Shown here piece after piece: positions 5,745-62,346 of a stretch of DNA of 64,000 nt (positions are counted from its first letter, which is position 1; each line of letters opens with the position of its first letter). The notes under the pieces were generated by a model. It saw only the letters and a program-made list of their open reading frames with translations. It did no database searches and was not told where the DNA came from. Source of the DNA: an uncultured Spirochaetota bacterium (GTDB lineage Bacteria > Spirochaetota > Spirochaetia > SZUA-6 > Fen-1364); the NCBI GenBank assembly GCA_963820525.1, contig CAWGAA010000002.1, positions 1-64,000 on the forward strand. Direction: 5' to 3'. The translations under genes and the position numbers were made by a program.

Positions 5745-7071
5745 TGTTCGTAGAAACGCACGCTGCTGTTCGCCGAGTACATGAACGAGCGGCTCATGCT
5801 TCGGTTGCCCCACAGACAATTCGTCTTCACCCTGCCCAAGGTCCTGCGCATGTTCTTCCGACATGACCGGCAGCTCCACGGTGAGACCAGCCGACTCATC
5901 CATCGCCTCCTGCAAGACTTCTTCACGGCGGCCGCAGGCATGAGGATCCGCACCGGCGGTGTCATTGCATTTCAGACCTCAGGGGAGTTCGTGAGATGGA
6001 ACCCGCACTGGCACGGGTTGTTCCTTGAAGGAGGCTTCGACCGCAACGGCCGATTCGTTCACATCCCCACGATGAACCTTGCGAAGATGAGCGCCTGCTT
6101 CCGCCACAGAGTTGTGGAGTTCTTCCGCCAGCGACAGCTGTTGAACGAGCGCTTGGCAAAGAACATGCTGGAGTGGACCCACTCGGGATTTAGTGTCGAC
6201 GGCTCCGTCGGCATCCCCGCAGGCTCCCCGAAAGCGCGCGAAGCCCTCTCGCAGTACATCGCGCGGCCGCCTGTCTCGCTTAAGAAGCTTCTCGTGGAGG
6301 AGGGCGGCACAGACAGCGTCCTGTACTACACTGCCTACAACAACTATTTCCGAACAAACGCCAAGCTGTTCTCCGCCTCTGACTTCTTGGCCGAACTCCT
6401 CCAGCACCTCCCAGAGCCCCGCACGAGGTTGATCCGTGCCTACGGATTGTACTCCTCACGCGCTCGGGGTACGTGGCTGCGGATGCCCTACCTTGTACGT
6501 CTCGCCCCTGAGGGGTGGAAGCAGGATCATTCGCCTCCGCCTTCAGCTTGCGTCGGTGCCCCCGGCGAGCCCCAACCGGACTGTTCGGTCTCCGCGATGG
6601 AGTGCCGCTCCGCGTGGGCTCGCCTTATTGCGAAGGTCTACGAGGTCGATCCCTTGGTCTGTCTCAGCTGCGGCGCAGCGATGCGCGTCTTGGCCGTCAT
6701 CACCGAGCCGCAGCAGGTCCTCAAGATCCTGCGCCACCTCGTGAAGATCGGTACGCCGCCACCCGGCTTAGACCCTGCTTCCCTCAACTGACCCTTGTCT
6801 TCTTAGCAAGCCTGGGGCACCTATGAACAGTGTCGAGAGCCCATTTCTCGTCGTTCCCTTTTGCGGGACTAGTCTGGCTTTTCTTTATGCCCGAAGGCCG
6901 CGTAGCCCCATCTGTTGGCCCATATTGTTTCCCATTCCTCATTCTCGGCCCGATATGTTCTTGCTGAAGATCACTCAACTTGCCTGTGATGGGTTGCAAC
7001 CGCACTCCGGGCGAGCTCGTCCCGCCAGTCGCTTGCTATGCCCAGACAACACCCTTATAGTAGTTCCTATC
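5745..7071 (+). mobile_element. IS91/ISCR-like rolling-circle element, family A, left-truncated copy (transposase 5781..6791 lacks the N-terminus)
   Basis: Near-identical to the 3' part of the full copy 57103..58784. HUH motif NPHWH and YIARPP. Begins at an internal GTTC; ends tagtagttcctatc followed by GTTT. Confidence 0.92.
7033..7061 (+). promoter_or_regulatory. Outward-facing sigma70-type promoter in the family A ori end (also in the other family A copies of 135 bp or longer)
   Basis: TTGCTA (7033-7038), 17 bp spacer, TATAGT (7056-7061); the element ends 10 bp downstream. Confidence 0.7.
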
Positions 7072-7261
7072 GTTTGGTGCCCCGTTGCCGGTATGTGCCG
7101 GGGGGCGTCGCATCCAAGGACAGCGCCAGCTGGTCTGAAAGGCGTTGCTGGGATCCGTGGATGCGTGACACCTAGGTGGTCTGGGGATGCAGGGCGGTTG
7201 ACGGCCCAATATAGGCATGATAGTGTGATCGGAATTAGACTGAAGTTAGAGGAAGAATTCC

Positions 7262-7939
7262 GTGAATAAAACATTTGTTTCAGTGCTTTCTGCTTGTACT
7301 GCAGTGTTTCTTGCCTTCGGAAGTTCTTCACTTTTCTCCGAAAGCCGAATAGATTCGCGAATTGTTGGGATATGGCGGCACGCATGCCTCGACAGCGCCG
7401 GAAGCGAACGGTTCCCCGGCGGAGATATCGGAACTGTGCACCCTGCACCTAAGTTGTCAATTCTTCCAGCCATATTCACCTTTGGATCCGATGGCAGCTT
7501 TGTCGCAGATTCCTACTTCGAAAGCTACAAGACGCCCAAACCAGGCGGATTTGGGAAGCTGGAGATCACCAGAAAGTTCGATATCAAAGATTCAATCCGC
7601 GGGACCTACCGTCTTTTCGATTCGATCCTTGACGCTTCCTTGTATTGCAATATGCCCCAGGATTCAATTCACAGCACCGGCTCATTTGATCGTATCCTGC
7701 TGATCATATTGGAGAGGAATAGGGGTCGAGAATTGTTCGCGATTTCTTTCAGCGGCCAAGGCAAAATGAAAACAGAAGCACTACGGGGCGCGCCCCGCGC
7801 AGTAGGATTCTTGCTTCCCTTGGAGGGCTCGTTGTCAGGCAGTGCTTACATGCGGCGACTGGTTGCTCCCGCCCCTTGGTGGCAATTGGAGGGCGAACCG
7901 CCGGAAGAGGAGAGCTCATCCAAGGTGCAACGACACTAG
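7262..7939 (+). CDS. Hypothetical secreted protein
   Basis: 225 aa ORF with N-terminal signal-peptide-like stretch; no recognisable domain. Confidence 0.55.
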   Translation: MNKTFVSVLSACTAVFLAFGSSSLFSESRIDSRIVGIWRHACLDSAGSERFPGGDIGTVHPAPKLSILPAIFTFGSDGSFVADSYFESYKTPKPGGFGKLEITRKFDIKDSIRGTYRLFDSILDASLYCNMPQDSIHSTGSFDRILLIILERNRGRELFAISFSGQGKMKTEALRGAPRAVGFLLPLEGSLSGSAYMRRLVAPAPWWQLEGEPPEEESSSKVQRH

Positions 7940-9189: not shown

Positions 9190-9503
9190 GAACCTGATCC
9201 CTTATATCAAGGCCGCGATGAGATACAGGCCCGATCTGAGACTGTTCGCGTCCGCGTGGACGCCTCCGACCTGGATGAAAGTGAACGGCGCGTTCGACGG
9301 CGGTTCAATGAAGGACGACCCGAAAATCTATGACGCCTATGCATTGTACCTGGCGCGTTTTCTCGAATCCTATCAGAAAGAGGGGCTCAATGTATTCGCC
9401 GTCTGCATTCAGAATGAGCCCACGATTGATACCCGCTATCCCAGCTGCCTGTGGACATCGAGACAGTTTTTGACCTTTACGAGGGATCATATCGGGCCCC
9501 TGT
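9190..9503 (+). pseudogene. Internal fragment of a GH30 glycoside hydrolase
   Basis: LFASAWTPPTWMK, YDAYALYLARFLESY, IQNEP, YPSCLW. No N-terminus; cut at the right by the family A copy. Confidence 0.8.
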
Positions 9504-10275
9504 TTGTTCGCAGAAACGCACGCTGCTGTTCGCCGAGTACATGAACGAGCGGCTCATGCTTCGGTTGCCCCACAGGCAATTCGTCTTCACCCTGCCCAAG
9601 GTCCTGCGGGTGTTCTTCCGACATGACCGGCAGCTCCACGGTGAGATCAGCCGACTCATCCATCGCCTCCTGCAAGACTTCTTCACGGCGGCCGCAGGCA
9701 TGAGGATCCGCACCGGCGGTGTCATTGCATTTCAGACCTCAGGGGAGTTCGTGAGATGGAACCCGCACTGGCACGGGTTGTTCCTTGAAGGAGGCTTCGA
9801 CCGCAACGGCCGATTCGTTCACATCCCCACGATGAACCTTGCGAAGATGAGCGCCTGCTTCCGCCACAGAGTTGTGGAGTTCTTCCGCCAGCGACAGCTG
9901 TTGAACGAGCGCTTGGCAAAGAACATGCTGGAGTGGACCCACTCGGGATTTAGTGTCGACGGCTCCGTCGGCATCCCCGCAGGCTCCCCGAAAGCGCGCG
10001 AAGCCCTCTCGCAGTACATCGCGCGGCCGCCTGTCTCGCTTAAGAAGCTTCTCGTGGAGGAGGGCGGCACAGACAGCGTCCTGTACTACACTGCCTACAA
10101 CGACTATTTCCGAACAAACGCCAAGCGGTTCTCCGCCTCTGACTTCTTGGCCGAACTCCTGTAGATGCCCGCACTCTGGATTGAGAAATTCTGAGAAACT
10201 GCCGAATTATTGTATCTAGGAATCCCGAAAGAAGGGAAAGGAAATCGGGCACAGGTTTCTGTATGACGCAGCGCC

Positions 10276-10929
10276 GTGCCCGACTCCACAACAGATACAG
10301 TAATACTAATCGACATTCCGGCCCGTGACTATAGCTTTATCAAGCTCTCTGGAGAATGGCACGCTCGCCTGAGCTCCGTCTGCTGCCCGGCCTGTGAAAC
10401 CCGCGGGCAGTTCAAAAGACATGGCTGCTATCACAAGTATCACTACCAAAACAGGATCATGATTCTCCGATTGCGCTGCCGCCAGTGCGGGTGCACCCAC
10501 GCTCTGATTCCCAGTTTTTCGCTTCCCGGCACCTCAATCGGAAGCGAGGAGGCGGAGCGGTACCTGATCGCGCGTGCAGAGGACATAGGACGGGGGCGGG
10601 CGGGAAGGGAGCTGCGTGCACAGAGGATGAGCGGTAGCTACCCCAAAAGCTTGGACCGGATGTTCGCTACGGCGGTGAGGAGGGCCAAGGCGCTGTTTCC
10701 CCGGGCGGCCGATGAGAGCTTGTCCGCTCTTGCGTGGGTGTTTGCCGTCGTGGGCTACACGGAGCGGCCCCTGGTGGAGTTGAATCGCTTTTGCCTGGCC
10801 AGTGGAGTAAACGCTGTCTGTTTCTGCCGCGCTTCCATCCTTGTTTTCAAGCCTCGCCGAGCGCGAAGCAGCTTTTCACATAATCTGGGCTCTGCCGGTC
10901 CTCCCACCTGCCGCCTACACTCCGGGTGA
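10276..10929 (+). CDS. Transposon-associated Zn-ribbon protein (DUF6431-like)
   Basis: CPAC..HGCY..LRCRQCGCTHALIPSFSLP. Confidence 0.75.
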   Translation: MPDSTTDTVILIDIPARDYSFIKLSGEWHARLSSVCCPACETRGQFKRHGCYHKYHYQNRIMILRLRCRQCGCTHALIPSFSLPGTSIGSEEAERYLIARAEDIGRGRAGRELRAQRMSGSYPKSLDRMFATAVRRAKALFPRAADESLSALAWVFAVVGYTERPLVELNRFCLASGVNAVCFCRASILVFKPRRARSSFSHNLGSAGPPTCRLHSG

Positions 10930-10954
10930 GATCACACAACAACCGGAGGAATCG

Positions 10955-12341
10955 ATGAACACGGAAGAACGAGAGAAAAAAGCAAAACAGATAGCCGAGT
11001 TCCGCTACGGCCTGATCGCGGAGCTGGCCAACCCCTACCTCAAGCCCCAGGAGCTGCGGCTCCTGCTCAAGGAGAAAGCCTCCCGGGAGCACGATGTGCC
11101 CAATACGGGCCGCCGCAAACTCTCCCGTTCCTGCCTGCTGAAATGGCTTTCATCCTACCGAAAACGAGGAAAAGACGGCTTGATGCCCCGAAGAAGGCGG
11201 GACGCCGGATTCAGCCGCGCTCTGGCGCCCGCCGAAGCGGCGATCCTTCTGGGCTATCTGGAAAACCATCCCTATCTCACCGCCATGACGGCGTTGAAAA
11301 CCCTTCAGACCGAGGGCAAGATAACCGGGACCCTGTCCAGATCCTCCCTGTCGCGGCTGGTCCGTGCGGCTGGGCTTGAAAAAAACCTGCGAATCACTGC
11401 CGAACAGCGCGAGAAGAATCTGAAGTTTCAGTTTTTCTCCCCTCTTGAATGTGTCCAGGCCGACTGCATGTACAGCATGCGGGTCTCCGATGCCAAGGGT
11501 AAAAGCCGCCTCGCCGTCCTTCTCGCCTTCATCGACGACGCCACGCGACGCATCCTGTATGCGGCATTCGGCTTCAGTGAAAGCTCCACCGCCTTCGAGG
11601 CCGGCATCAAGCACATCCTTTCGGCCCACGGTCGAATCGGTCGGTTGTACGTGGACAACGGCAGCGGCTTCATCTGCGCTCAAACCCAGCGGATCCTCGA
11701 CACCCTGGGCATCGTTCTTATCCACTCCCGCCCCTACAAACCGGCAGGGCGCGGGAAGATCGAACGGTTCTGGCGGACTGCCCGCGAACAATTCTTCCGC
11801 CCTCTGGAGCCCAACTCAGTGAAAAGCATTGCCGATCTGGATACACGGTTTCACGCATGGCTGGAAGGCGAGTATCACAGAAGCCCCCACCGCGGCATAA
11901 ACGGCAAGACCCCCCTGGAGGCGTGGCTGGAGAAGGCCCATACCATCCTGCCGTCTGGACCCGACAGTGGACTTAGCCCAGGTGTTCCTCCACGAGGCCG
12001 GCCGTAAGGTCCACAAGGATTCCACCATCACCCTGGACGGCGTGCTCTACGAGGTGCCATCCACCCTCACCGGTGAGCGCATCCTGGTGCGCTACGACCC
12101 CAGTATCTGCCCCCACAGCGACGACGGCTGATGGTGTTCCACGGGGGCAAGCCCTGCGCGGAGGCCCGTATGGTCGATGCCTACGCCAATCCCACGTCAG
12201 ACGGGGTTCTCTGTGCAAGGATCTCGTTGTCGACTCCCCTGAGCAGCTCCCCACAACCAGAAGCCTACCGCCACTCCCCTGAAAGCTTCCCTGTCCGCCT
12301 CTCGGGTTCAGCTCGAAGCGAACAAGGAGGCGACGGAATGA
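10955..12341 (+). pseudogene. DDE integrase-type transposase, frameshifted in the C-terminal part
   Basis: AEFRYGLIA, VQAD, FIDDATR, LYVDNGS, GRGKIERFW; tail ITLDGVLYEVP lies in another frame. Confidence 0.88.
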
Positions 12342-13141
12342 ACTCCAAAGAGATGCTCAGCTATTTCGGCCTTGCCGCTTTGCCCTTCACCAAGGAGATC
12401 CCCACAGAACAGCTCTCGCTGCTTCCTTCGGTGGAGAAACACCTCGCCGCGGCACAGCTGCTTATCGATACCCGGGGCACGGGGGTCCTCGTCGGAAAGT
12501 CCGGCACCGGTAAAAGCTGCCTGCTTCGGTTGTCTGGCTTCACGGCTGCCTCCGGGTCTGTACAAACCGCTGTACCTCTGCCACACCTCCGTGGGAATCG
12601 TGGAGTTCTACACCCACCTCTCCAGCCTTTTCGGCCTTTCCCCCTGTTATCGCAGAGCCTCTATGTTCCGCGATCTCAAGGAGCATATCCAGTCCATGAA
12701 CAACTCCCGCCATGTGCACCCCGTGCTCATCATTGACGAGGCTCACCTGCTTAACAACGAAATCCTGGCGGAGATCAGACTTCTGACCAACTTCAACATC
12801 GATTCACTGAACGCCTTGACCGTCCTCCTCTGTGGGGCCGAAAGCCTTGCCCTTCGCTTTGGGCTTTCAGTCCTTGAAGCCCTGGCCAACTCGATCACTA
12901 TCACAATCTCCATCGACGGCCTCTCCCAACAGGAGAGTATCGCTACATCGAGGGACGCCTGTCCGCCTGCGGCGCCCGCATTCCCCTGTTCACCAAGAAC
13001 GCTCTGACCCTTGTTCACCAGGCATCGGGGGGAATCCTTCGCACCATCGGCACGGTCGCCAACGCCGCCCTTCTCAAAGCTTTCATGGCCAAGAGTCCTC
13101 AAGTGGAGGCGGAACATGTACAGGCGGTCATTCAACGCTGA
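12338..13141 (+). pseudogene. ExeA-like AAA+ ATPase (transposition helper), frameshifted
   Basis: YFGLAALPFTK, Walker A GKSGTGKS, Walker B LIIDEAHLL. Confidence 0.88.
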
Positions 13142-13162
13142 TTGCAGCGGCCTGGAAAATGC

Positions 13163-13196
13163 GGGAGTGTGGGGCGTACCTTGCACTCCCTTTTTT
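13163..13196 (+). terminator. Rho-independent terminator after the ATPase gene
   Basis: gggagtg...cactccc stem followed by T6. Confidence 0.7.
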
Positions 13197-13986
13197 ATTG
13201 TCCCTTAAAAACGGATGAGACAATAATGCGGGAATTGAGAAAATATCGCGGTCATTTTTAAAACCGGATCGCGGGATTCCCGCGGACAGAAAAGCGGGTG
13301 ACTACAACTCCTCCAGCACCTCCCAGAGCCCCGCACGAGATTGATCCGTGCCTACGGATTGTACTCCTCACGCGCTCGGGGTACGTGGCTGCGGATGCCC
13401 TACCTTGTACGTCTCGCCCCTGAGGGGTGGAAGCAGGATCATTCGCCTCCGCCTTCAGCTTGCGTCGGTGCCCCCGGCGAGCCCCAACCGGACTGTTCGG
13501 TTTCCGCGATGGAGTGCCGCTCCGCGTGGGCTCGCCTTATTGCGAAGGTCTACGAGGTCGATCCCTTGGTCTGTCTCAGCTGCGGCGCAGCGATGCGCGT
13601 CTTGGCCGTCATCACCGAGCCGCAGCAGGTCCTCAAGATCCTGCGCCACCTCGTGAAGATCGGTACGCCGCCACCCGGCTTAGACCCTGCTTCCCTCAAC
13701 TGACCCTTGTCTTCTTAGCAAGCCTGGGGCACCTATGAACAGTGTCGAGAGCCCATTTCTCGTCGTTCCCTTTTGCGGGACTAGTCTGGCTTTTCTTTAT
13801 GCCCGAAGGCCGCGTAGCCCCATCTGTTGGCCCATATTGTTTCCCATTCCTCATTCTCGGCCCGATATGTTCTTGCTGAAGATCACTCAACTTGCCTGTG
13901 ATGGGTTGCAACCGCACTCCGGGCGAGCTCGTCCCGCCAGTCGCTTGCTATGCCCAGACAACACCCTTATAGTAGTTCCTATCGTT

Positions 13987-14816
13987 AACTCCTCCAGCAC
14001 CTCCCAGAGCCCCGCACGAGGTTGATCCGTGCCTACGGATTGTACTCCTCACGCGCTCGGGGTACGTGGCTGCGGATGCCCTACCTTGTACGTCTCGCCC
14101 CTGAGGGGTGGAAGCAGGATCATTCGCCTCCGCCTTCAGCTTGCGTCGGTGCTCCCGGCGAGCCCCAATCGGACTGTTCGGTCTCCGCGATGGAGTGCCG
14201 CTCCACGTGGGCTCGCCTTATTGCGAAGGTCTACGAGGTCGATCCCTTGGTCTGTCTCAGCTGCGGCGCAGCGATGCGCGTCTTGGCCGTCATCACCGAG
14301 CCGCAGCAGGTCCTCAAGATCCTGCGCCACCTCGTGAAGATCGGTACGCCGCCACCCGGCTTAGACCCTGCTTCCCTCAACTGACCCTTGTCTTCTTAGC
14401 AAGCCTGGGGCACCTATGAACAGTGTCGAGAGCCCATTTCTCGTCGTTCCCTTTTGCGGGACTAGTCTGGCTTTTCTTTATGCCCGAAGGCCGCGTAGCC
14501 CCATCTGTTGGCCCATATTGTTTCCCATTCCTCATTCTCGGCCCGATATGTTCTTGCTGAAGATCACTCAACTTGCCTGTGATGGGTTGCAACCGCACTC
14601 CGGGCGAGCTCGTCCCGCCAGTCGCTTGCTATGCCCAGACAACACCCTTATAGTAGTTCCTATCGTTCATTCTCGGCCCGATATGTTCTTGCTGAAGATC
14701 ACTCAACTTGCCTGTGATGGGTTGCAACCGCACTCCGGGCGAGCTCGTCCCGCCAGTCGCTTGCTATGCCCAGACAACACCCTTATAGTAGTTCCTATCG
14801 TTTAGTTCCTATCGTT
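13987..14816 (+). repeat. Three nested tandem duplications of the family A right end (681, 135 and 14 bp)
   Basis: 13987..14667, 14668..14802 and 14803..14816 each end in gttcctatcGTT. Confidence 0.95.
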
Positions 14817-14874
14817 AGGTTAGACAAAGCGACTCACATATCCTAAAGTAAGTCAGAGTCGAAAGGAGCAGATA

Positions 14875-15132
14875 ATGGCAAGGGGATACTTTGGATATTG
14901 CAAATACAATTCTACAAGCCCGTCTCAGGCAGACCTAAGATCCAAAACGAAAGTTCTGAATGTCTATCTCAGTTTTGAAGATGCCCTGAAGCTGAATTTC
15001 GCAATGCAGAAGTGCCTTCTGCAACTCGCCTCATCCAACCATCGCGGGGGGAAAGGCAAGAGCAAGGGGCTTTCTCTCGCAGTCTGCCTTGGGAGGCCAG
15101 CAATAATGGTCACAGAATTTCCCAGGGACTAA
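14875..15132 (+). CDS. Small hypothetical protein
   Basis: 85 aa ORF with RBS aaggag, directly downstream of the ori stack. Confidence 0.6.
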   Translation: MARGYFGYCKYNSTSPSQADLRSKTKVLNVYLSFEDALKLNFAMQKCLLQLASSNHRGGKGKSKGLSLAVCLGRPAIMVTEFPRD

Positions 15133-15460
15133 CGAGGCTGTTACGAAACCCCCTCAATCCAACATCCAGACTACGGCGCAAGTCCAAGGGGCCAACGCCC
15201 ATACGGATTGCGCCACTGCCTCCCCGGTACCCCCAAGCGCAGACTGCCACTGCCTACTACCGGTGCTGCACCGTTGGCAAACCCAACTTACTCCGTCCAG
15301 GATTGCCCCAGGACGCCAGTGGCGGGCCGTGGTGCGATTTTCCGTTGGATTGACGTATCACTTTTGCCCTAGGCGCGCGCAACTTAGTGTTACGGCTCAG
15401 TCGGATGAAAACAAGACGGGTACCTCGGATCTGGTAGATGGCTAGGAGGTCGGAACGGAC

Positions 15461-15949
15461 GTGGACACCTCCGCGAAGGTACTGCGTATCCACGCCAGCT
15501 ATGTCGATGTGGACGGCGAGCGCGATCAGGCCAAGCACGGAAGCAACCGCGACGTTCCCCTACCGTCTGCGGTGAGTGAAGCGCTGGAGGACTGGCGCAG
15601 TGAGCCACCAGCTACGCGGCCTGAGAATTGGGTTAGCTGCGATACCGAGCAGCCCAACCAGCCCATGCGTGCGGACCTCATTCGTGAGGCTTACTACGCG
15701 GCCTTGATTGACATTGGCATCAAGAATCGAGAGGCCCGACGGATTGTGTTTCACTCCCTGAGGTACTGGTACAACACCCAACTCCGCGGCTCGATCCCTG
15801 AAGCTGTTCTCCGTCGGTTCACCGGGCACCACAGTGAGGAGATGACGGACCTGTACGACGCGGGGAAAGAGATTGATTTTCAGAAGGCACGAGCTCGACT
15901 GGAGGAACTGGCTAAGTCGCCGGAAAAGAAGAAGGCAGCAAAGAACTAG
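15461..15949 (+). pseudogene. C-terminal catalytic fragment of a tyrosine recombinase/integrase
   Basis: IVFHSLRYWYNT and FTGHHSEEMTDLY (H-x-x-R, H, Y residues); N-terminus missing. Confidence 0.8.
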
Positions 15950-16017
15950 CCGACTTGACGGGCGGCCCAGAGGCGACATCAAAAACGGATCACAACCCCA
16001 GACTGGAGGTGAACAAA

Positions 16018-16725
16018 ATGCCCGACGACCGGAAGGTGCTGCCTCTCAAAGAGGCATACAGTTATGCGGCTTCTCATGGGTTTGATAAGGAAGTATCAGA
16101 GATACGGGATATGGAAATTTAGTGGGATCTTTCGTACTCATCGTCCCTAAGACGTGGCTACATTATTGACCTTCTATCAAATAATAACCTGTTCGATGAC
16201 TTCAAACAGCAATTCTGGCCTTCTGGCAACTCGAGCTGGGGAGAGAGCCGGTCGAGATTTTGGCGCTCTCTCAAGCCGCGCTACATCAGTTTCCTGGAAG
16301 GAAAGAGTCCTGAGACGGCAGAAGAAGAAGAGGACAGCGACAAGGAATTTGCAGCTGAGGCTGATCTACGTGATTTTCTTGCAAACAATCTTGACTGTGT
16401 CGAGCCCGGCCTCCGTTTATATTCTTGTGATGACAAGTACGGGATTGAATACCCAATAGATGACGGTCGAATCGACATTCTTGCCACCGACAAGGATGAC
16501 AGATATGTTGTTTTTGAGCTGAAGCTGACTAGGGGAAGAAACAAGACGCTCGGTCAACTTCTATACTACATGGGATGGATTGACAAGAACCTAGGGAAAG
16601 CTCCATGCCGCGGTATCATCATCGCAAAGGATATCTCTGATGATCTAGTCCTCGCAGTCCAGAGAGTAAACGACGTGTCATTATATCGATATAAACTCAG
16701 CGTGTCCGTCGAGCTCGTCAGATGA
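16018..16725 (+). pseudogene. NucS/EndoMS-like PD-(D/E)xK endonuclease domain protein with one in-frame TAG (16120-16122)
   Basis: Hand translation: RBS ggaggt, ATG 16018, EADLRDFLANNL..IEYPIDDGRIDILATD..VVFELK..KTLGQLLYYMGW, TGA 16723-16725. Not in the ORF track. Confidence 0.85.
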
Positions 16726-17047
16726 TATTGACTTCTACCGTGTGAAGGTAACGAAAGCCATTACTTCGTCGTCGCCCTAAGTAGTCCGTTGTTGATAACT
16801 ATATTACGGGACAACAAATAGATCAAGCACAGTGTTGACTGATGTTGCCGCGAACTCCCTAATGTTGCGGTGTTTGTACCCTCTCAGGGTGACACTCGGG
16901 GTGACACTTGAAGCACATAATAGCATCACCCTTTCCTGTCCAGAATTCGACATCTGCTCAGTCCAGAAACGGTGTCACATTGAGAACCGTGAGGAACCGC
17001 CAGAAGCCAGGTCGTTTTTCGAGTCCTTGAAACGAAAGGGCCATTCA

Positions 17048-17412: not shown

Positions 17413-17467
17413 AACCCCAGCCTGGACTCCTGCGAAGCACCCGGCAGGCCCGATAATTGTTACTACC
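17413..17467 (+). mobile_element. Isolated ori end (about 55 bp) of IS91-like family B
   Basis: Matches 24939..24993 (ccagcctggactcctgcgaagcacccg.caggccc.ataattgttactacc), both followed by ATT. Confidence 0.85.
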
Positions 17468-17486
17468 ATTCAAAACCCTTGCCCCA

Positions 17487-17777
17487 CTACTTGATCCGCT
17501 CAGCTTCCGAGAACGCGGCGAAAATACCCTCATTCGGGAAACGGCGCGCCACATCCACTATGACTGACCTTGCCGCCTCAATGCCCGCGTCGTCCAGGTA
17601 GCTTATCAGCATGAAGTTCAGCTCTGGCCAGACCTGCGTCCCGTCCTTGTGGGTTCTCGTGCCCCTGCCCTCAATCCGGGGTAAAAGGGTGAACTCGATG
17701 CCTTTAATGGCCGCAGCGAGACCGTCCACGAGCTCGGACTGAACGGCCTCGCATGCGATCAATTCCAGTCGCTTCAT
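17487..17777 (-). CDS. P-II-like transporter-associated small protein
   Basis: 96 aa, TLLPRIEGRG..HKDGTQVWPELN; last gene of the RND operon. Confidence 0.7.
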   Translation of the reverse strand: MKRLELIACEAVQSELVDGLAAAIKGIEFTLLPRIEGRGTRTHKDGTQVWPELNFMLISYLDDAGIEAARSVIVDVARRFPNEGIFAAFSEAERIK

Positions 17778-20700
17778 AGCGTGCCCTTCCTTTTTGCGTC
17801 CCTCATGTTCACGATGTAGTAGACGACGGGAACAATGACCAGCGTGATGATGGTCGCCGTGACCAGGCCGCCGAGCACGGCCAACCCGATCGGCTGGGTG
17901 ATGTTGGAGTTGTCCGAGGGGAAAAAGGCCATCGGGATTTCGCCGATGATCATCGCTCCGGCGGTGATCAGAACGGGGCGGAAACGGGTTGCCCCGCCCT
18001 CAATGCAGGCGTCCATCAACCCGGCGCCGCGGGCGCGCAGGAGGTTCGTGCAGTCGACAAGGAGGATGCCGTTGTTGACCACGATGCCGATCAACATGAC
18101 GACGCCCAGCATGGTGAACATGTTCAGGGTTTGTCCCACGATGAAATAGATCCCGAGGACCCCGATGATCATTATGGGAACTGTGGCCAGGTTGATGATC
18201 GGGTCCTTCAGGGATTCGTACTGGGCCGCCATGACGCCCCAGACGAGGATTATGCAGAGGACAATGATCGCGAGGATGGTCTGGGCCTGGGAGGCCATCT
18301 CGCTCCAGGATCCGGTATAGCTGATCGAGACGTCGTCCGGTACGATAATTCGGGACTTGATGAGGGATTGTATTTTCGCCTCGACCTTGTTCGCCTGTTT
18401 TCCCGGCGCAAGGCTTCCCGAAAGATCGACCGTACGGGTCTGGTCCGTCCGGTGGACCTGAACGAGCCCTGCCGTCTTTTTCAGCGCGACGAGGCTCGAC
18501 AACGGGACGCGGGAGCTCGAGTTGCTGAGCACGAAAACTTTGTTCAGGTCCACGGTCTTTGTCCTGTCGGAGGGCTGGAGCCGCACCCAGACGTCGTACT
18601 CTTCGCCCCCCCTGCGGAACACCGTGGATTGGTATCCCTTCATGGCGTCGCGGATCTCGGCCGCGATCGTGGAGACCGAGATGCCGAAGGAGGCCGCCCG
18701 CCGCCTGTCGATCTGGACCTCGATCTGGGGGAGCCCGCTATTCGTGTCGGTCTCGGGCTCCAAGACCTCGGGGACGTCGGACTTTATCAGGACGAGGATC
18801 TCGTTCGCGGTTTTCACCAGCGCATCATAGTTGTTCGAGGTGAGGGTGACGTCGATGTCTTTGCGTTCGGACAGGGGGTGACCCATTTGAAAACTGAAAG
18901 ATGCATTCGGGTAATCCTTGAAATGGGCGCGAAGTTTCTTCTGTATCGTCATGAAGTCGTCGATACGCTGCGAGCCACTAGGAATAGTGACAACGAGGCT
19001 GCCTTTGTAGCTAGAGCTTGTGGAGAAAAAACCGCCGGTCGCGCCGCTTGTGGCGATGATGTTCTTCACCCCCTTCAACTCCTCCTTCGCGATTTCCGCG
19101 AACTTCAGGACGACCGCTTCAGTCTGTGTAAAAGGCGTTCCCAGGGGCATGGTGACGTTGAGGGTGACGGAATTCTCATGCATGGTGGGAGTGAAAATGA
19201 TCGTGATGCGGGGGAGAAAAAGAGGATCGAGCCGACGATCAGAGCGAGGATGACGAATACCGTAGTTGCGCGATGCTTCAGGCATGAAATCAGGAGACGC
19301 CGGTAGCCGCGGTTCACCGCATTGATCCCTCTGTCTATCAACGTGTCGAAGAAGACGAGGACCGGATTCTTCAAAGGCTTTTCACCCCGCGTGGTGAGCG
19401 GAAGGTAACGGCTTGCGAGAACCGGCACGAGGGTGACGGCAACCACAAGGCTCACGAGGTTGGAGATGATAATCGTGAACACCATGTCCTTGAACATGAT
19501 TCCCATCATCCCGAGCTTGTTGATGAACATGACGATCGGGAGGAAAGCGACGACGGTTGTAAGCACGCCGGCGGTGACGGCCACCAGCACCTCCTGGCTG
19601 CCGATGTTGGCCGCCACGAGCGCTTTTGTGCCGCGTTTGCGATAGATAGAGATGCTGTCTATGATGACGATGGAGGCGTCAACGATGCTCCCGATGCTCA
19701 CGAGGAGCCCCGCCATGGTCATCATGTTGAGCGTGAAGCCCGCGAAATACATGGAAAGGAGGGTGACGAGAATGGCGATCGGAAGGGTGATGCCGATGAT
19801 GATCGTACTCTTGATGTTCCTGAGGAAGAAAAAGACGAAGAAAATCGTGAGGGCAGCGCCCTCGACGATGGCTTGCATCAGGTCGTTGATGGCGGACCTG
19901 ATCTGGATCGAGGTGTCATTGATAATCTCAAGCTTCACGTCCGAGGGGAGCACCTGCTTGAGTTGCACGATGGACTTGTAGACGTTGTTCGCCACGCTCA
20001 CCGTGTTCTGGCCGCTTTGCTTGCTGACGGAGACATAGACCCCGGGGGTGCCGTTGATATAGACCGAGGTCTCGACGTCCTTGTAGCCGTCGAAGACGGT
20101 CGCCACGTCCTTCAGCCTGATCGGCACGCCGTTCTTCATTGCGATCTGCGCGTTGGCGATGTCCTCGTCAATGGTGGAGAATGCGCCCGTTGTCCTGATC
20201 GCGTACTCGGTCTTGCCTTCGATGATCTTTCCGGCGCCGAGCTCCACGTTCTGATCGGCAAGGGCGGAGGATATGTCGCTGATCGTGATTCCATAGGCCT
20301 CCAGACGGTTCCGCGATATGTCTACCCGGACCGCCTCCTCCCTGCCTCCGACCACCGACACCTGTGAAACCCCGGAGGTCCCCGCGAATTTCGTCTCCAC
20401 GATATCCTCGGCGATCTTTTTCAGTTCCTCGGTGCTGCGGTTTCCCCGGACAGCGACCTTGACGATCGGCATCGTATTGGGATCTATCTTGATAATGGTG
20501 GGTCTGTCCGCTTCGCTGGGGAGGCTGTCCACGACGGTATCGACCTTGTCGCGAATGTCGTTGGCCGCCTTATCGAGGTCCTTCCCGTAGTCGAACTCTA
20601 TCGTGATAAAGCTCATTCCGTCCGACGAGGTCGAGGTCATGCTCTTCATACCCTGGACGTTGGACAGACCCTTTTCCAGGATTTTCGTCACATTCTTCTC

Positions 20701-20877
20701 CACGGTTTCGGGCCCCGCGCCTGTGTAGGTGGTGGTTACCATGACAAAAGGCGGCGAGGAGGTGGGCAAAAGATCGAGCGGGATCGATGAGATCGAATAG
20801 AGTGCGAGAACGACCACAATGGTAAAAGCGACCGTTATGAAGATCGGCCGTTTGACGACGCGCTGTGCAAGGGTCAT
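17774..20877 (-). pseudogene. RND efflux inner-membrane subunit (AcrB family), one frameshift near 19215
   Basis: VKRPIF, LNMMTMAGL..IVDASIVII, IGIVVNNGILLVD, TRFRPVLIT; split between ORFs 19105..20877 and 17774..19285. Confidence 0.9.
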
Positions 20878-40290: not shown

Positions 40291-40292
40291 TA

Positions 40293-50758: not shown

Positions 50759-50874
50759 ATTGGATTATTGCGACGATAATAGTTGGCATAGCACCTAATG
50801 CAGCCCCAACTATAAGTAATTGTATATCGTGAGATGTAATAGTCACTTATTTTTCTCGCAGTCACTCGTAATTG

Positions 50875-51868
50875 ACCGCTTCTTTTTCATTCCCATCGGC
50901 GCGGGGGAGGCTTTATGCGAGGCCTGGAGGCGCTCGGTGGTTGCCTTCTTTCTGGACAAAGGGTTGCTGAACAGGGAGTTCGCCCGCACGCTATTGACCT
51001 GGAGGCACTCGGGGTTCTCCATCGAGAGCGGCACGCGCATCTATGACGCGCAGACTCGGCAGGGCCTCTGTCAGTATATCATTCGCGCCCCGCTTTCCCT
51101 GCAGAAGCTGGAGTGGGACGAAGAACAGGATACCATTACATGGACTTCCTCTCCTACGGGATACTTTCGGGGACAACAGCGCCATTTCTCCTGCCTGGAC
51201 TTCATCGCCCAGTTGACCCTGCACATTCCCCCGCAGGGCAAGCATCTTCTGCGCCGCTACGGGTTGTACGCCTCCAGAGCACGGGGGACCTGGAAGAAGC
51301 GTCCCGCCTTGAGCAGCCGTGCCCCCGAGGGCTGGTATGGTCGCACAGAGGGTAGTGACTGCGTGCCGGCGTGCGCCTCCCAGGACTGGGAGGTCGGCCG
51401 CGCTGAGTGCAAAAGCGCCTGGGCCCGGCTGCTGGCCAAGGTATATGAAGTGGACGCGTGGGCCTGTCCGGCCTGCGGCGGGCGCATGTCGGTGATCGCC
51501 GTTATTCGCGACCCTGCCGAGATTCGAAAGATCATAACGTGTATGAGCAAGCAGGGGCGGGGGCCGCCGTATGAGTGCTGAGCGTTCTGCCCCGTTTGAT
51601 TCGACGCAAACGCGGATACCCTACTCCCGATGCGCCCTCAACCGCAGTATGCCCCAGGATCATCGGGAGGTAGCCCGCTGGGCGGGCTTTCGTGGTATAG
51701 AGACGCCCGCCGTACCGTCGATTCGGTTCTTGACGGGGTGAAACCGGCAAGATAGGCTCGCTCTGAGGCCGAAAGTGTGTAATGTGTGGCACTCTCGATT
51801 GCGGGAACAGGAAGACGTAGCGGGGCGAACCGGTGAATCAGTCGACAAATGCTATAAAATGGCTTATC
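50875..51868 (+). mobile_element. IS91-like family D, left-truncated
   Basis: TWRHSGFSI, QYIIRAPLSL, RRYGLYASRARG, AWARLLAKVYEVD; ends tataaaatggcttatc|AATT. Confidence 0.85.
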
Positions 51869-51906
51869 AATTCAGTCGACAAATGCTATAAAATGGCTTA
51901 TCAATT
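51839..51906 (+). repeat. Perfect 34-bp tandem duplication of the family D ori end plus 4 flanking bases
   Basis: cagtcgacaaatgctataaaatggcttatcaatt at 51839..51872 and 51873..51906. Confidence 0.95.
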
Positions 51907-51922
51907 TTATAAGGAGAACCAT

Positions 51923-53084
51923 ATGAAACATAAATTGATATTATCGATAATTTTAGAGTCTCCTACGGGGAGAAACCCCCTCGTCTTTAGACGAAGACTT
52001 TAGTAGGCTTGCGGTACGATGAAGCAGTATCGAAAAGCGTCGCACTGCGTCTATGATTTGAAGTATCATATAGTGTGGATCACCAAGTACCGCAAGCCAG
52101 TGTTGGGGAAAGAGATAGGAACCCGCGTAAGAGATCTGATACGAATGATTTGCGCGAGCCTGGACGTAGAGATCGTGAAAGGGAACATCAGCCGCGATCA
52201 CGTGCATCTGCTGCTGAGCGTGCCGCCGACTCTATCGGTATCCAGGCTCGTGCAGCGCATGAAGGGGCTGACATCACGGAAGCTGCTCATGGAAAACAAA
52301 GGGTTGAACAAAACATTCTGGGGCAGGCATCTTTGGGCCCGCGGGTATTTCGTGGCGAGCACAGGGAACGTGACCGAAGAGATGATCGCCCGCTACATCG
52401 AGAATCAGCAGGACACAGAGCGGGACCAAGATGCCGACTTCAAAGTAGAACCGTGATGTCGGCCCCAGTCGGCTTTAGCCGACAAGCGCAAACCCCCCGA
52501 CTTAAGTCGGGGGTGGTTTAGCACTTGTTTTGGTGAGCTTCAGTGGATGCTCGATTAACACAAATGAGCCGCCTACTGTTACTCTTTCTGCCGATAAAAT
52601 AAATCCGATGTTCGGAACTGAAGTCATCATCACAGCCGATGCTTATGACGAAGATGACGATACCCTGACTTATACTTGGTATATAAATAACAATATACAA
52701 AGTCAACTTGATTCGGATGTTTATTCGGTTTCCTATACTCTGAATCCAACAGTGGAAACCGCTGTTATCATTAGTTGTACGGTATCGGATGGCGAGGATG
52801 AAGCATCCGCCAATATTACCATCACATTCACAGCACCGGTAACTTTATTTCTTAACAATTCTACAGGCTATGTAATCGATGGTGTCTATATAAAACCCTT
52901 ACCATCAGGTACATGGGGTAATGATTTATTCTCCGGTACAGTTGGTGCATATGGTACGGGTTATGTTTATAATGTCCCCGAGGGAACGTATGATATCGAA
53001 GTCGATTCAGGTACGGTACGCTATTGGTCTTTTACAAATATTACCCTTGAAGGTGGCACGACTTTTACTTTAAATCTATTATAA
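51923..53084 (+). pseudogene. Lipoprotein with Ig/PKD-like domain, signal peptide split by an IS200/IS605 element
   Basis: Joining 51923..51956 to 52522 gives MKHKLILSIILALVLVSFSGC in frame; RBS aaggag; NEPPTV..DEDDDTLTYTW..VSDG. Confidence 0.85.
51957..52521 (+). mobile_element. tnpA: IS200/IS605-family element with Y1 transposase only (52019..52456)
   Basis: YHIVWITKYRK, DHVHLL, HLWARGYF, RYIENQ; subterminal hairpin cccccgact-ta-agtcggggg; inserted 3' of TTAG. Confidence 0.93.
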
Positions 53085-53685: not shown

Positions 53686-53822
53686 TTCCTCATTCTCGGC
53701 CCGATATGTTCTTGTTGAAGATCACTCAACTTGCCTGTGATGGGTTGCAACCGCACTCCGGGCGAGCTCGTCCCGCCAGTCGCTTGCTATGCCCAGACAA
53801 CACCCTTATAGTAGTTCCTATC
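53686..53822 (+). mobile_element. 137-bp ori-end fragment of family A
   Basis: Matches the last 137 bp of family A; followed by CTTA. Confidence 0.93.
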
Positions 53823-53980
53823 CTTAGCATAGCGGGCCGACTGAACGCGTGTGGTAGCATCTACTGATTACTAGGTGCAAGCCACAAAGGCCCGCGTTCT
53901 TTGATATCTCTTATCCAAGTCTTCTTATGCCAAATCCTTTTTCCAATTAAAGAGATATCTTGATAAGCAAATATGCTTAC

Positions 53981-54093
53981 GTATAACATAGAGTTCAGTT
54001 GCCCCGAAGCCTCAAGGCGGCAGTTCAATTTCCGCCCGTATGCCTTGCTTTCCTAACGTAGTCTTAGGGGTCAACTGCAACGACATGTTATAG
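53981..54093 (-). other. Integron attC recombination site (113 bp)
   Basis: Minus strand CTATAAC-atgtcg-TTgCAGTTGaCCCC ... GGGGCAACTGAA-ctctat-GTTATAC: complementary R and L boxes, unpaired spacer, two extrahelical bases. Confidence 0.8.
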
Positions 54094-55612
54094 CGCGTCC
54101 TTTTAGCTTGGGGTTCTCGCATATTGGGTTGGCCCCCTTCCCAAGGTTGTAGTCCACGCATGCGGTTCTGAGGTTCTGTAGTTCCGTATTTCAGCCAAAT
54201 GTCCAAGGCTTGAAGTGATCCACATGCAATCTGACCTCAGGCGGCTTCCTTCCGCAATAAGTGCACGCAAAGCCGTCTCTCTTATACAGCGCGTCATAAG
54301 TAATTGCGCATTATTGCATAATGTGATTTTATATAGGAATGAAACAACTGACTATCGCGGATGCCCCCACTATCATCCTTGGACTGCAAGACGAAATCCG
54401 TCGTTCACAAGAATCCCGCTATGATCATCGACTTCATGGCATTCTGCTCGTAGCACAGGGAATGAGCTGTATTGAGGTTGCGCATTTTCTCGGCGATGCA
54501 CCACGAACCGTGCAGTATTGGATTCGCCGCTTCGAGGCGGAAGGACTCGCGGGCATTGTTGAAGGCGATCGAACTGGACGACCCACACGCCTCAAACCTG
54601 AACAAATACAAGAAGTGAGCCGCGCTCTTCGACAACCACCAGCTGCCGCTGGGTTGTCTGGTAACCTATGGGATGGAAAGACACTCTCCGCCTTCATTGT
54701 ACAGCGCTATAAAGTCAGGTTGGGTGTACGTCAATGTCAACGCGTCTTTCGACAACTCAACTTCCGACTGCGCAAGCCTCGTCCAGTAATTGCGCGAGCC
54801 GATCCGACTCGCCAGACCGAGTATAAAAAAAACTCAAGGCGTTGATGCTGGATGAACAGATAGATTTGTGGGCGACGGATGAGGTACACTTTCAGCAGTA
54901 CGGCTCACGATGCCGAATGTGGGTTCACCCGAAGTCAAAGATCCGGTACTGCTACATTATCCCGGGCGAAAGAGCGTGGGATACTTCGGTGCCGTTCGTC
55001 TGCGCGACGGCAAATTCTTCTTCAAACGCGAAGAGGATAGTTTCGACGCGAATACATTCTTCGTGTTCATGAAGCAATTGCGCTTCAGAGCTTCAAAGAG
55101 TCAAAGGCGCATCGTCGTGATCACTGATAATGCCAGATACCACCATGCAAAGCTCCACAAGCAGTGGCGCGAGGAGCACAGCGCATCTTTCATACTGGAT
55201 TATCTGCCGCCGTATAGTCCCGATCTGAACCCAATCGAAAGAATGTGGAAGCTCACTAGACGGCTCTGTCTGCATAACAGATACTTCCCTACTATGGGCG
55301 ATGTCACGTACGCGGTTGAAGACCGCTTCGCTCAGTGGGAGGCGCCAAATGAAACATTACGTCGTTTATGCGCAATTACTTAGGACGCTATGTATAAAAC
55401 CAAGAACCGCATTGAGGCGGAAATAGTTCTGGATGCCTTCGATTCGTGCTTGACAGACTTTGCTGACGCTTGGCCACTGACAGCCGCAGTTCTAAGCCAT
55501 AAGCTGTAAAAACCGGCACTCGACCTTTCAGATAGCAAGAAAAGTCGGCACGGGTTCGGACACAAAACGCGCTCAGGCCAACAATACCGGGATAGCCATG
55601 ATTACCTTGCAT
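54094..55612 (-). pseudogene. HNH endonuclease gene split by IS630 (ends approximate)
   Basis: SRTISASMRFLVL | KRDGFACTYCGRKPPEVRLHVDHFKPWTFG*NTELQNLRTACVDYNLGK. Confidence 0.8.
54285..55394 (+). mobile_element. IS630-family element, second copy of 36302..37412, extra frameshift in orfB
   Basis: Same IRs, TA duplication, near-identical proteins. Confidence 0.93.
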
Positions 55613-57102: not shown

Positions 57103-58784
57103 TGATGACGCCCACAAGGCAAGCGCGGCGTTTCTGGGGCCGTTGGCTCCCTGTGTGGCAGATCAGCTGGCCTTTGCTCTGGAGACGGCGTCACCCTGCA
57201 CCTATCGGCAGCGGGGCGCCAGTACGCTCCAAAGTTTATTTCAGAGGCACTTCGCCGAATTTTGCGCGCGCTACGAAGCGGACTACGCCCGCCGCCTGGG
57301 ACGGATCCGCCTGGAGAGGATCCGCAGGGTAGTCCGGCGTTTCCTGGACTGCGGGAACTACACCAGGGGCATGGCAAGGATCCAGTGCACGAATCCTAAC
57401 TGTAAGTCGGAGTACTTCCGGCCCTTCTCCTGCAAGACGTTCTATATCTGCCCGTCTTGTTCGCAGAAACGCACGCTGCTGTTCGCCGAGTACATGAACG
57501 AGCGGCTCATGCTTCGGTTGCCCCACAGGCAATTCGTCTTCACCCTGCCCAAGGTCCTGCGGGTGTTCTTCCGACATGACCGGCAGCTCCACGGTGAGAT
57601 CAGCCGACTCATTCATCGCCTCCTGCAAGACTTCTTCACGGTGGCCGCAGGCATGAGGATCCGTACCGGCGGTGTCATTGCATTTCAGACCTCAGGGGAG
57701 TTCGTGAGATGGAACCCGCACTGGCACGGGTTGTTCCTTGAAGGAGGCTTCGACCGCAACGGTCGATTCGTTCACATCCCCACGATGAACCTTGCGAAGA
57801 TGAGCGCCTGCTTCCGCCACAGAGTTGTGGAGTTCTTCCGCCAGCGACAGCTGTTGAACGAGCGCTTGGCAAAGAACATGCTGGAGTGGACCCACTCGGG
57901 ATTTAGTGTCGACGGCTCCGTCGGCATCCCCGCAGGCTCCCCGAAAGCGCGCGAAGCCCTCTCGCAGTACATCGCGCGGCCGCCTGTCTCGCTTAAGAAG
58001 CTTCTCGTGGAGGAGGGCGGCACAGACAGCGTCCTGTACTACACTGCTTACAACGACTATTTCCGAACAAACGCCAAGCTGTTCTCCGCCTCTGACTTCT
58101 TGGCCGAACTCCTCCAGCACCTCCCAGAGCCCCGCACGAGGTTGATCCGTGCCTACGGATTGTACTCCTCACGCGCTCGGGGTACGTGGCTGCGGATGCC
58201 CTACCTTGTACGTCTCGCCCCTGAGGGGTGGAAGCAGGATCATTCGCCTCCGCCTTCAGCTTGTGTCGGTGCCCCCGGCGAGCCCCAATCGGACTGTTCG
58301 GTCTCCGCGATGGAGTGCCGCTCCGCGTGGGCTCGCCTTATTGCGAAGGTCTACGAGGTCGATCCCTTGGTCTGTCTCAGCTGCGGCGCAGCGATGCGCG
58401 TCTTGGCCGTCATCACCGAGCCGCAGCAGGTCCTCAAGATCCTGCGCCACCTCGTGAAGATCGGTACGCCGCCACCCGGCTTAGACCCTGCTTCCCTCAA
58501 CTGACCCTTGTCTTCTTAGCAAGCCTGGGGCACCTATGAACAGTGTCGAGAGCCCATTTCTCGTCGTTCCCTTTTGCGGGACTAGTCTGGCTTTTCTTTA
58601 TGCCCGAAGGCCGCGTAGCCCCATCTGTTGGCCCATATTGTTTCCCATTCCTCATTCTCGGCCCGATATGTTCTTGCTGAAGATCACTCAACTTGCCTGT
58701 GATGGGTTGCAACCGCACTCCGGGCGAGCTCGTCCCGCCAGTCGCTTGCTATGCCCAGACAACACCCTTATAGTAGTTCCCATC
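57103..58784 (+). mobile_element. IS91/ISCR-like family A, longest copy (1682 bp) with intact 453-aa HUH transposase (57143..58504)
   Basis: Zn-binding CGNY..CTNPNC..SCKTFYICPSC, HRQFVFTLP, NPHWH, YIARPP; hairpin-prone left end; right end gttcccatc|GTTT; no target duplication. Confidence 0.94.
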
Positions 58785-59479
58785 GTTTGCGGACTGATGG
58801 TACCGTCGACCTCCACCACCATCAGCTCACACTCCTGCTGCGCTTTCTGGGCCGAGATCATCTGGTAGGGATTGTCCGTGATGCGCTCTCCGACCGCCTC
58901 GGTGTTGCGTTGCACCGCCGTGGCACTGACCCCGAAGCCCAACGCCTCGCTGAGCATTTCTGCCCCTCGCGCATAGGCTTCGCTCCCGCCGAAGCATGTC
59001 AGCAGATAGCTCATAAGCGGCGAATAGCCAAGGCAACGATCCAGCCCCAGCTTCTCCTCCAGAGGACTCCATCCGCCCTCCCCGTCGCGGAACTTGTAGC
59101 ATCGACGCGGCAGCACCATCGTGGCTCCAAAGCGAGTACGAAACCGCAGATTGCGCATACCCGAATACACAGCCGTGCGCTCGCCGACCCGAACGCCATT
59201 CTCTTGTGTGGGCTCTTTCAAACCTGAAAGTGACCTCCCGTTCCAGGATTTGACCCAGTTCGTAGACGAAGCTCAGAATCCGCTGTTCAACCTGTTCAAG
59301 ATTGCACCTTCCCAGATTGAGCCCTTCGGACAGTTGCTTGACCAGCATCTGGCTGTGCGGTAGAACGTCAGTGATTTCCATGGCCTGTCTCCCCTCCCTA
59401 ACAAGGATTAAGCAAGGTGGAGATAGGCCATTTTCTTTAAAAACTCAATGCCAAAAAACCCGTTCTTGAAATCGCACCC
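58785..59479 (-). mobile_element. ISLre2-like transposase 5' part, frameshifted, truncated at the family A ori
   Basis: FRTRFG..RRCY..WSPLEEKLGL..YSP, LMVVEVDG; terminus GGGTGCGATT at 59479. Confidence 0.7.
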
Positions 59480-62311: not shown

Positions 62312-62317
62312 GTCTGT

Positions 62318-62346
62318 CAGACAACACCCTTATAGTAGTTCCTATC
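62318..62346 (+). mobile_element. 29-bp ori-end fragment of family A
   Basis: cagacaacacccttatagtagttcctatc, 6 bp after the protease stop; followed by CTTT. Confidence 0.9.

Follow-up and report, generated by a model that had tools for sequence, protein, structure and literature searches.

A dense array of co-oriented IS91-family ori ends in the genome of an uncultured spirochaete

The DNA analysed here (64,000 nt in all, hereafter the window) forms positions 1–64000 of contig C2 in a 5.05-Mb spirochaete genome assembled in four contigs. It contains elements of four subfamilies (A to D) of one IS91-family group with IS801-like ends. Self-comparison of the window and direct reading of the sequence confirmed all 14 ori-type ends listed in the initial annotation, every one of them on the + strand. 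Nine belong to family A (IS-A), and each of these was recovered (7071, 13983, 14664, 14799, 14813, 46392, 53822, 58784, and 62346). The individual features are listed below; a slash within a motif marks the cut.

5745–7074, + strand: IS-A copy cut at an internal CTT/GTTC; tnpA lacks its N-terminus; ori ...CCTATC followed by GTT
9498–10160, + strand: second IS-A copy, left part; cut at the same internal GTTC site; adjoins the GH30 fragment 9194–9499
10161–13305, + strand: IS481/IS21-like two-gene element (rve transposase and AAA ATPase) inside the IS-A copy
13306–13986, + strand: right-hand remainder of the interrupted IS-A copy, up to its ori plus GTT
13987–14667, + strand: 681-nt ori-end unit directly behind the preceding ori plus GTT; 5 SNPs relative to 13306–13986
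14668–14802, + strand: 135-nt ori-end unit, the next step of the staircase
14803–14816, + strand: 14-nt ori-end unit (TAGTTCCTATCGTT), the final step of the staircase
17413–17470, + strand: subfamily B ori-end fragment of 58 nt (...TTACTACC plus ATT)
24126–24996, + strand: piece of subfamily B that has lost internal parts and keeps an ori end; followed on the right by an N-terminally cut ABC permease gene
34921–35870, + strand: subfamily C fragments with a probable, weaker ori end
44670–46395, + strand: near-full IS-A; left end at 44691 (TGAACTTACAGG...); 60-bp in-frame gap in tnpA; ori plus CTT
46396–46402, + strand: AACTCCT, the 7 nt that also start the 681-nt unit at 13987, behind ori plus CTT and followed by unrelated DNA
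50820–51905, + strand: subfamily D fragment whose 34-nt ori end is tandemly doubled (51838–51871 and 51872–51905)
53686–53825, + strand: 137-nt IS-A ori-end fragment plus CTT; cut aspartate kinase gene on one side, integron-cassette-like unit on the other
57103–58787, + strand: IS-A copy without its first 80 nt; intact 453-aa tnpA at 57143–58504
62318–62349, + strand: 29-nt IS-A ori-end fragment plus CTT, 6 nt past the stop codon of a 930-aa protease gene

The nine family A ends share the terminal sequence ...CAGACAACACCCTTATAGTAGTTCCTATC, which is followed by GTT or CTT (STT); in two copies the CTT variant is linked to an internal SNP. The annotated ends are real, but the conserved end (...CTATC plus STT) reaches 3 nt further than the positions given for them. 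Scanning C2:1–80000 with TAGTTCCTATC and allowing at most two mismatches returned 16 matches, ten of which are true IS-A ends (the nine above and one at 67008, outside the window). The remaining six (11722, 55225, 67772, 71554, 71944, and 76729) were rejected as unrelated chance matches. STT follows all ten true ends; the fourth base varies, and no consensus is seen beyond it. The family A ends are unlike each other, the left beginning with TGAAC... and the right being a small hairpin, ...TATAGTAGTTCCTATC, followed by STT. Alignment and folding revealed ATAGT/ACTAT or ATAG/CTAT stems at the tip of the A, B, and D ends as well as in copies on other contigs. The two family B ends (17413–17470 and 24939–24996) are 94.8% identical over 58 nt. 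The single family C end (35867) is weaker, retaining the layout ...TATA...C plus ATT but not a clear terminal hairpin.

The true left end of IS-A lies at 44691 and at C2:65321 (TGAACTTRCAGGG...), because the similarity of C2:65168–65320 to a paralogue ends at ...ACATGTCTT. Family A copies are mutually 98.5–99.7% identical, and the family is young and recently active. Its partial copies range from 14 to 1685 nt and include units that retain the ori side only (681, 135–137, 29, and 14 nt). Right ends are kept while left ends are cut to variable lengths, as had been noted, with truncations falling at differing positions of the full element; target duplications, likewise as annotated, are absent from the flanks of all copies. 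The same internal CTT/GTTC site forms the start of two copies (5745 and 9498). The stretches 9498–10160 and 13306–13986 are one copy split by the 3,145-bp IS481/IS21-like element (10161–13305), a single-copy element in this genome that is bordered by a 7-bp target duplication, AACTCCT.

A Pfam scan of 72 ORFs detected Y2_Tnp (PF04986) and Zn_Tnp_IS91 (PF14319) domains in front of the ends, and the NCBIfam IS91 model NF033538 was matched with 135.7 bits (cut-off 125), in agreement with the IS91-family identity proposed initially. The 453-aa ORF at 57143–58504 is full length when compared with homologues of about 445–450 aa, 664 of which were found at E ≤ 1e-20 among 8000 scored candidates. Ten aligned sequences all retain H193-x-H195, Y338/Y341, and the zinc cysteines. 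The annotation had named one intact transposase; the gene is indeed intact, but there are two such tnpA genes (57143–58504 and C2:65441–66799). The tnpA at 44811–46112 lacks 20 residues. The elements also have unlike ends, an ori with a subterminal hairpin downstream of tnpA, and no terminal inverted repeats, all of which are IS91-family traits. Two further traits, read-through of ter with upstream DNA and partial copies of the ori end, were recognized by sequence comparison.

Other classifications were considered and rejected. For ISCR elements, model NF052416 (ISCR clade Ia) gave 128.6 bits against a cut-off of 925, and three copies have a defined left end. With regard to integrons, one attC-type motif is present in the window, in which no integron recombinase, attI, or promoter was found; the sole integrase-like ORF (15461–15949) is a fragment with no NCBIfam match. 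The transposase consists of zinc and Y2 domains only, with no helicase, which does not agree with Helitrons. The earlier description of the locus as a Helitron-like or integron-like platform is therefore not supported, recombinase, attI, promoter, and helicase all being missing.

In three instances family A has read through its left end and taken flanking DNA along (21, 153, and 534 bp). All three copies that bear the left end have the identical 21 nt of a gene, here called gene Y, in front of it. In the window these are positions 44670–44690, immediately before the left end at 44691, and the copy beginning at 44670 is a 21-nt read-through. Just outside the window, C2:65168–65320 matches, with 96% identity, a paralogous gene at C2:90833–90985 that is uninterrupted, and the longer stretch C2:64787–65320 comprises the final ~53 lon codons, then intergenic DNA and 153 bp of gene Y. 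This stretch matches C3:3685–3248 with 94–98% identity (94% between C2:64790–65166 and C3:3682–3312, the end of lon), and C3 contains an intact 892-aa lon behind clpX. The N-terminal half of gene Y was not found behind the ori end at 67011. Taken together, these lon and gene Y matches and the missing half of gene Y show C2:64787–67011 to be one cargo unit, the clearest at this locus, which consists of 534 bp of cargo, IS-A, and ori copied from a lon-type locus. The lon part has diverged more (94%) than the IS part (97.8%). At the level of sequence, carriage of left-flanking DNA by read-through of ter is demonstrated for this lineage. Such carriage by family A is the signature of one-ended transposition as described in the accessible text on IS91/IS1294 (PMC13181058) and IS801 (PMC3189936).

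Behind the ori end of the interrupted copy, units of 681, 135, and 14 nt follow head to tail (13987–14816), each ending in CCTATCGTT. Short ori-end tandems also occur elsewhere in the genome, in subfamily D (a perfect tandem of a 34-nt unit at 51838–51905) and at C1:1261630 (10 nt). Using tblastn and TRF, we identified two other spirochaete genomes with clear tandem ori ends among 54 regions downstream of related transposase genes; one locus (L029) has a 40-nt unit twice, ending in CCTATCATT, and the other (L055) has tandem ori-end units of 85, 85, 54, and 37 nt. Two additional loci (L039 and L095) are candidates for tandem ends. The strict ori motif was found at the ends of only 7 of 80 related loci, implying that ends differ among relatives. 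The window staircase, subfamily D, and these other genomes all bear out the idea that resident ori ends act as docking points for ori-bearing pieces.

The boundary of the repeat units lies 3 nt beyond ...CTATC. These three bases are constant within each subfamily (ATT in 5/5 ends of B and its C1 relatives, AAT in 3/3 C3 ends) and align with element-internal bases of the IS801 ori. Considering the tandem units, the constancy within subfamilies, and the one SNP linkage, STT is read here as part of the element. The transposase may nick after STT, which fits the tandems and is the model we prefer. A nick before STT, with STT representing target bases as in IS91, would fit the true left end and the GTTC starts, but it could not yield the STT that lies between tandem units, and this model is less favoured. 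In IS91, according to the accessible text of PMC13181058, the tetranucleotide beside ori derives from the target. Half of the eight junctions that do not adjoin an ori end have left flanks ending in TT, compared with a background TT frequency of 4.5–5.4% (p ~3e-4, a rough value with boundaries chosen by eye). Most truncation points show no recognizable cleavage motif, the exceptions being the internal CTT/GTTC (twice) and the true left end.

Within C2:5.7–67 kb, all 15 IS91-family pieces lie on one strand. They occupy about 11 separate positions (p about 0.001 if independent), and other IS types within the window occur in both orientations. Among 80 related loci in other genomes, nine hold two or more IS91-like pieces; co-orientation is seen for 8 of their 11 secondary pieces (p = 0.11), and 8 of 11 consist of the ori-proximal part only. 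Docking explains the tandems, but it does not fully explain the co-orientation of four subfamilies with different ends. Candidate explanations for co-orientation at kilobase spacing are stacking of cargo, strand-biased insertion, and selection against inversions.

In a genome search (30 HSPs), family A matches of at least 94% identity were confined to C2:5745–67011 (+ strand), apart from a left-end fragment at C3:2869–3167 (− strand). Further clusters of IS91-like subfamilies are present at C1:1.26–1.30 Mb (four loci, all − strand), C3:2.8–71 kb (all − strand), and C3:329–336 kb (two loci, + strand), and fragments retaining the ori (88, 473, 660, and about 1000 nt) occur in the C1 and C3 clusters as well. 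A single dnaA lies at the GC-skew minimum of C1 (C1:2616550), and the one parB is also on C1, close to that minimum; C2 is accordingly likely to be chromosomal and not a plasmid, and C2 to C4 are probably parts of one chromosome. The direction of replication indicated by GC skew is weak and contradictory. Clustering is evident, with family A confined to one region. Fork direction fits the large clusters under one contig orientation, but not three of the four isolated loci or the local skew. Among the 40 nearest genomes (~70% DNA identity), there is no relative close enough for comparing gain and loss of segments. Homologues of the Ldh_2 gene that adjoins the first family A copy are only 33–39% identical.

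The segments between the ends form a patchwork of base composition, as annotated, ranging from 41.6 to 62.6% GC. Three of the eight segments of at least 2.4 kb rank at the 92nd percentile of tetranucleotide distance or higher, and two large operon segments look native in composition. Five genes had been reported as cut at the junctions, and this was confirmed for three of them. The GH30 fragment (9194–9499) covers profile positions 80–188 of 348 and is the only one in the genome; the aspartate kinase piece consists of ACT domains only, with none of the genome's seven AA_kinase domains located in the window; and the ABC permease lacks its N-terminal third, about 320–380 residues, which were found nowhere in the genome. 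No cut was confirmed for ISLre2 and the beta-propeller: the 2.16-kb multi-copy IS at 42045–44209 and the IS1182 transposase are full length, and the NHL ORF starts 350 nt from the nearest junction. A search of the same genome revealed no donor copies of the 2–10 kb segments between ori ends; its matches were other IS types, a 77% paralogue of 2576–4604, and one integron-cassette family. The window also holds a single stray attC-type cassette, which is outside the mechanism discussed here. Because no inter-ori segment has a donor in the genome, the view of the kilobase segments as captured cargo is unproven, and that part of the initial annotation was not upheld. Capture of such segments is possible. 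The cut genes are accounted for just as well by recombination between co-oriented copies, an event that would unite sequence left of one copy with sequence right of another.

The most reasonable interpretation, to which we assign a probability of roughly 0.6, is that the window is an IS91-family hotspot in a spirochaete chromosome, representing ordinary biology at unusual density and not a dedicated capture platform. Here, the transposase would nick after STT and may favour targets ending in TT; if both hold, a resident ori end would be a good landing site, and successive landings there would build a head-to-tail stack with a single orientation. Left-truncated copies may be rolling-circle products that were aborted or ended too early, a process demonstrated experimentally for IS801. 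Several sources together might account for the cut genes and mismatched flanks: truncated insertions, a share of one-ended transposition, the other IS types, and recombination between co-oriented copies. Several observations were counted against this explanation: most truncation points lack a cleavage motif, four of the eight left flanks lack a terminal TT, the bases beside ori are target-derived in IS91, docking explains the co-orientation of the four subfamilies incompletely, three junctions fall at the same internal base, and the staircases shorten from left to right. The capture-platform reading advanced originally was right about IS91 identity, persistence of ori, an intact transposase, read-through, and docking, but the cargo of the array is unproven, carriage amounting to 21–534 bp.

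It is unlikely that the inter-ori segments themselves are cargo of ter-less one-ended transposition, stacked at ori ends and served by a transposase acting in trans. Read-through cargo of family A and docking behind ori ends have both been demonstrated, the latter for units without cargo; the flanks of GH30, aspartate kinase, and ABC permease fail to rejoin, the permease gene being cut exactly behind the ori-B end; several segments are foreign in composition; and the accessible text of PMC13181058 and PMC6354349 indicates that IS91-type elements can move up to 40 kb. However, the genome contains neither a second copy nor a donor for any inter-ori segment, the two largest segments are native in composition, no gene is cut at 17470, and recombination between co-oriented copies yields an identical picture. 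In addition, the single proven cargo unit (C2:64787–67011) landed away from an ori end, and proven cargo does not exceed 534 bp. Equally doubtful is a broader proposal, in which the final bases of the tail ...CTATC plus STT would match those that the transposase cuts in targets, and ori ends would dock both abortive pieces and cargo-bearing products in one orientation, with the 62-kb array as the product of a platform that accumulates foreign segments and needs no integrase.

Independent insertions, pointing the same way through an orientation fixed by fork movement or through counter-selection of chromosomal inversions between opposed copies, are less probable still. The single dnaA at the GC-skew minimum and the one parB, which make C2 to C4 probably one chromosome, speak for them; with C2 forward and C3 reversed, the three large clusters and a copy on C4 would be co-directional with replication, and IS200 copies beside two clusters have the same orientation as the clusters. 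This rule is nevertheless broken by three of the four isolated IS91-like loci, the local skew over C2:1–170 kb is opposite in sign, and neither the exact docking behind ori ends nor the strong regional clustering is accounted for. That the array is wholly or partly an assembly artefact of near-identical repeats is very improbable, even though the genome is metagenome-assembled in four contigs and its copies are 99% alike. Five SNPs separate the tandem units, other genomes show the same architecture, and two junctions recur in contigs of public runs, in any of which at most 31% of sampled words of 12800–16800 were present. The contigs of one run (X1) contain unique parts of the locus without differences together with the junction ori-CTT-AACTCCT-TGGCGG (46392–46408), and those of another (X5) contain the 62346 end with its flank. 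In other samples this ori end is again followed by GTT or CTT, with differing flanks.

The hotspot has its nearest counterpart in IS801 of Pseudomonas syringae, an IS91-family Y2 element. According to the accessible text on IS801 (Bardaji et al. 2011, PMC3189936; 2019, PMC6354349), variable-length ori-end fragments are common, upstream DNA is occasionally carried, and many ori ends per replicon can be served in trans, all as seen or proposed here. The ends are also alike, with a left (T)GAAC start (compare (T)GAACAGGG) and a right TTCCTAT core. In the portions of PMC3189936 available, 26% of IS801 events are ori-end fragments and 0.7% carry 290–1431 nt of upstream DNA, and the authors attribute most genomic fragments to reorganization or recombination. 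In contrast to the present locus with its single strand, IS801 copies and ori fragments on p1448A-A (NC_007274) lie on both strands. Moreover, IS801 has a GAAC/CAAG tetranucleotide beside ori in the text available, whereas the bases here are STT, ATT, or AAT, constant per subfamily and copied with tandem units. Tandem ori-end staircases were not found described in the accessible parts of the two papers (PMC3189936 and PMC6354349).

Similarly, IS91 and IS1294 share with these elements distinct ori and ter ends, the absence of target duplication, mobilization of ter-side DNA when termination fails, and a trans-acting transposase (accessible text of PMC13181058). Unlike those elements, the present ones have no orf121 and no clear CTTG/GTTC target, and their host is a free-living spirochaete chromosome instead of an enterobacterial plasmid. 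ISCR elements move by rolling circle and lack ter; their copies are co-oriented, frequently truncated, and interspersed with unrelated genes. In contrast to them, IS-A has a real left end and no link to class 1 integrons or resistance genes. The locus resembles an integron platform in that unrelated pieces are stacked in order and in one direction at a docking sequence that recurs, but it has no integrase, attI, or promoter, and docking would use the nick site of the transposase itself. Truncated ori-end copies and flank mobilization have already been published for IS801, and behaviour of this kind is known from IS801, IS91, and ISCR. What appears to be new is the strict co-orientation, the ori-end staircases, and an apparent three-base shift of the nick.

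A role in assembling clusters of resistance and virulence genes is ascribed to IS91-family and ISCR elements. To our knowledge, the formation of co-oriented IS91/ISCR arrays is poorly documented. The locus described here offers a natural series of nested flank captures away from clinical plasmids, with the donor lon locus still present, as well as evidence that ori ends attract ori-bearing pieces and a hint of a nick three bases beyond the conserved end. For now it mainly shows known behaviour at high density; if docking at ori ends is true of cargo-bearing units too, the growth of arrays in one orientation would be explained.

One internal position of IS-A (family A of the IS91-family elements, with a conserved right, or ori, end followed by GTT or CTT) was found to be a junction three times in the window. 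This position, which begins AACTCC, is the first base of a 7-bp duplication from an IS481/IS21-like insertion (10154-10160, 13306), the start of the 681-nt tandem unit docked behind an ori end (13987), and the first base past a 60-bp gap in the near-full IS-A copy that begins at 44670 (45715). In addition, 7 nt of the same internal IS-A sequence lie behind the ori end at 46392 (46396-46402). Tandem, stepwise shorter ori-end duplications were also detected in related IS91-family elements of two other spirochaete MAGs:

L055, 11504-11770: ori-end tandem of 85/85/54/37 nt
L029, about 11490-11575: ori-end tandem of 40 nt, twice

Other mobile elements in the window have copies on other contigs of the same genome (C1 and C3):

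36299-37414, 39077-40293 and 54282-55397: three IS630-like elements, not all in the same orientation
42045-44209: multi-copy element of 2.16 kb
51950-52525: IS200-type element, 100% identical to C1:1285936-1286507

Near-identical copies of the IS630-like elements were found at C1:743-772 kb, and the IS200-type match on C1 lies within a cluster of other IS91-like subfamilies, in the same orientation as that cluster. The 2.16-kb element has four more full copies and one split copy on C1 and C3, with >99.7% identity. Its 545-aa ORF, which is overlapped on the opposite strand by a DUF6788 ORF, had no match in Pfam and NCBIfam searches, and its language-model features are like those of DDE_Tnp_1 transposases.

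Two genomic regions contain apparently broken genes. The AcrB-type RND pump gene (17774-20877) is divided between an ORF at 19105-20877 and a second, overlapping one at 17774-19285, probably by a frameshift. At 2586-4604, the genes for KDPG aldolase and PfkB kinase look broken when compared with a paralogous stretch (C3:441092-443106, 77% match).

Recombinase gene fragments and an integron-cassette-like unit also lie in the window:

15461-15949 and 40300-40435: two related tyrosine-recombinase gene fragments
53826-54110: integron-cassette-like unit that carries attC-type core sites but no gene

The recombinase fragments share 84% identity over 136 nt; neither matched any NCBIfam family, and therefore nothing in them points to an integron integrase. 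The cassette-like unit is 92% identical to C1:716938-717118, which is located within a large array of attC sites with 62 motif matches on the minus strand of C1. Its start adjoins an IS-A ori fragment and CTT, at most ~10 nt from the attC GTT core position in the C1 copy.

Outside the window, IS-A is found together with cargo:

C2:64787-67011: 534 bp (lon 3' end, intergenic stretch and a piece of gene Y, the gene carried in part at the IS-A left end) plus a full IS-A

In the C3 copy (C3:2869-3685, also outside the window), the gene-Y piece is missing 88 bp, and an IS256-type (Mutator family) element cuts the right side of the copy. The donor context of this cargo is clpX-lon, which is intact on C3.
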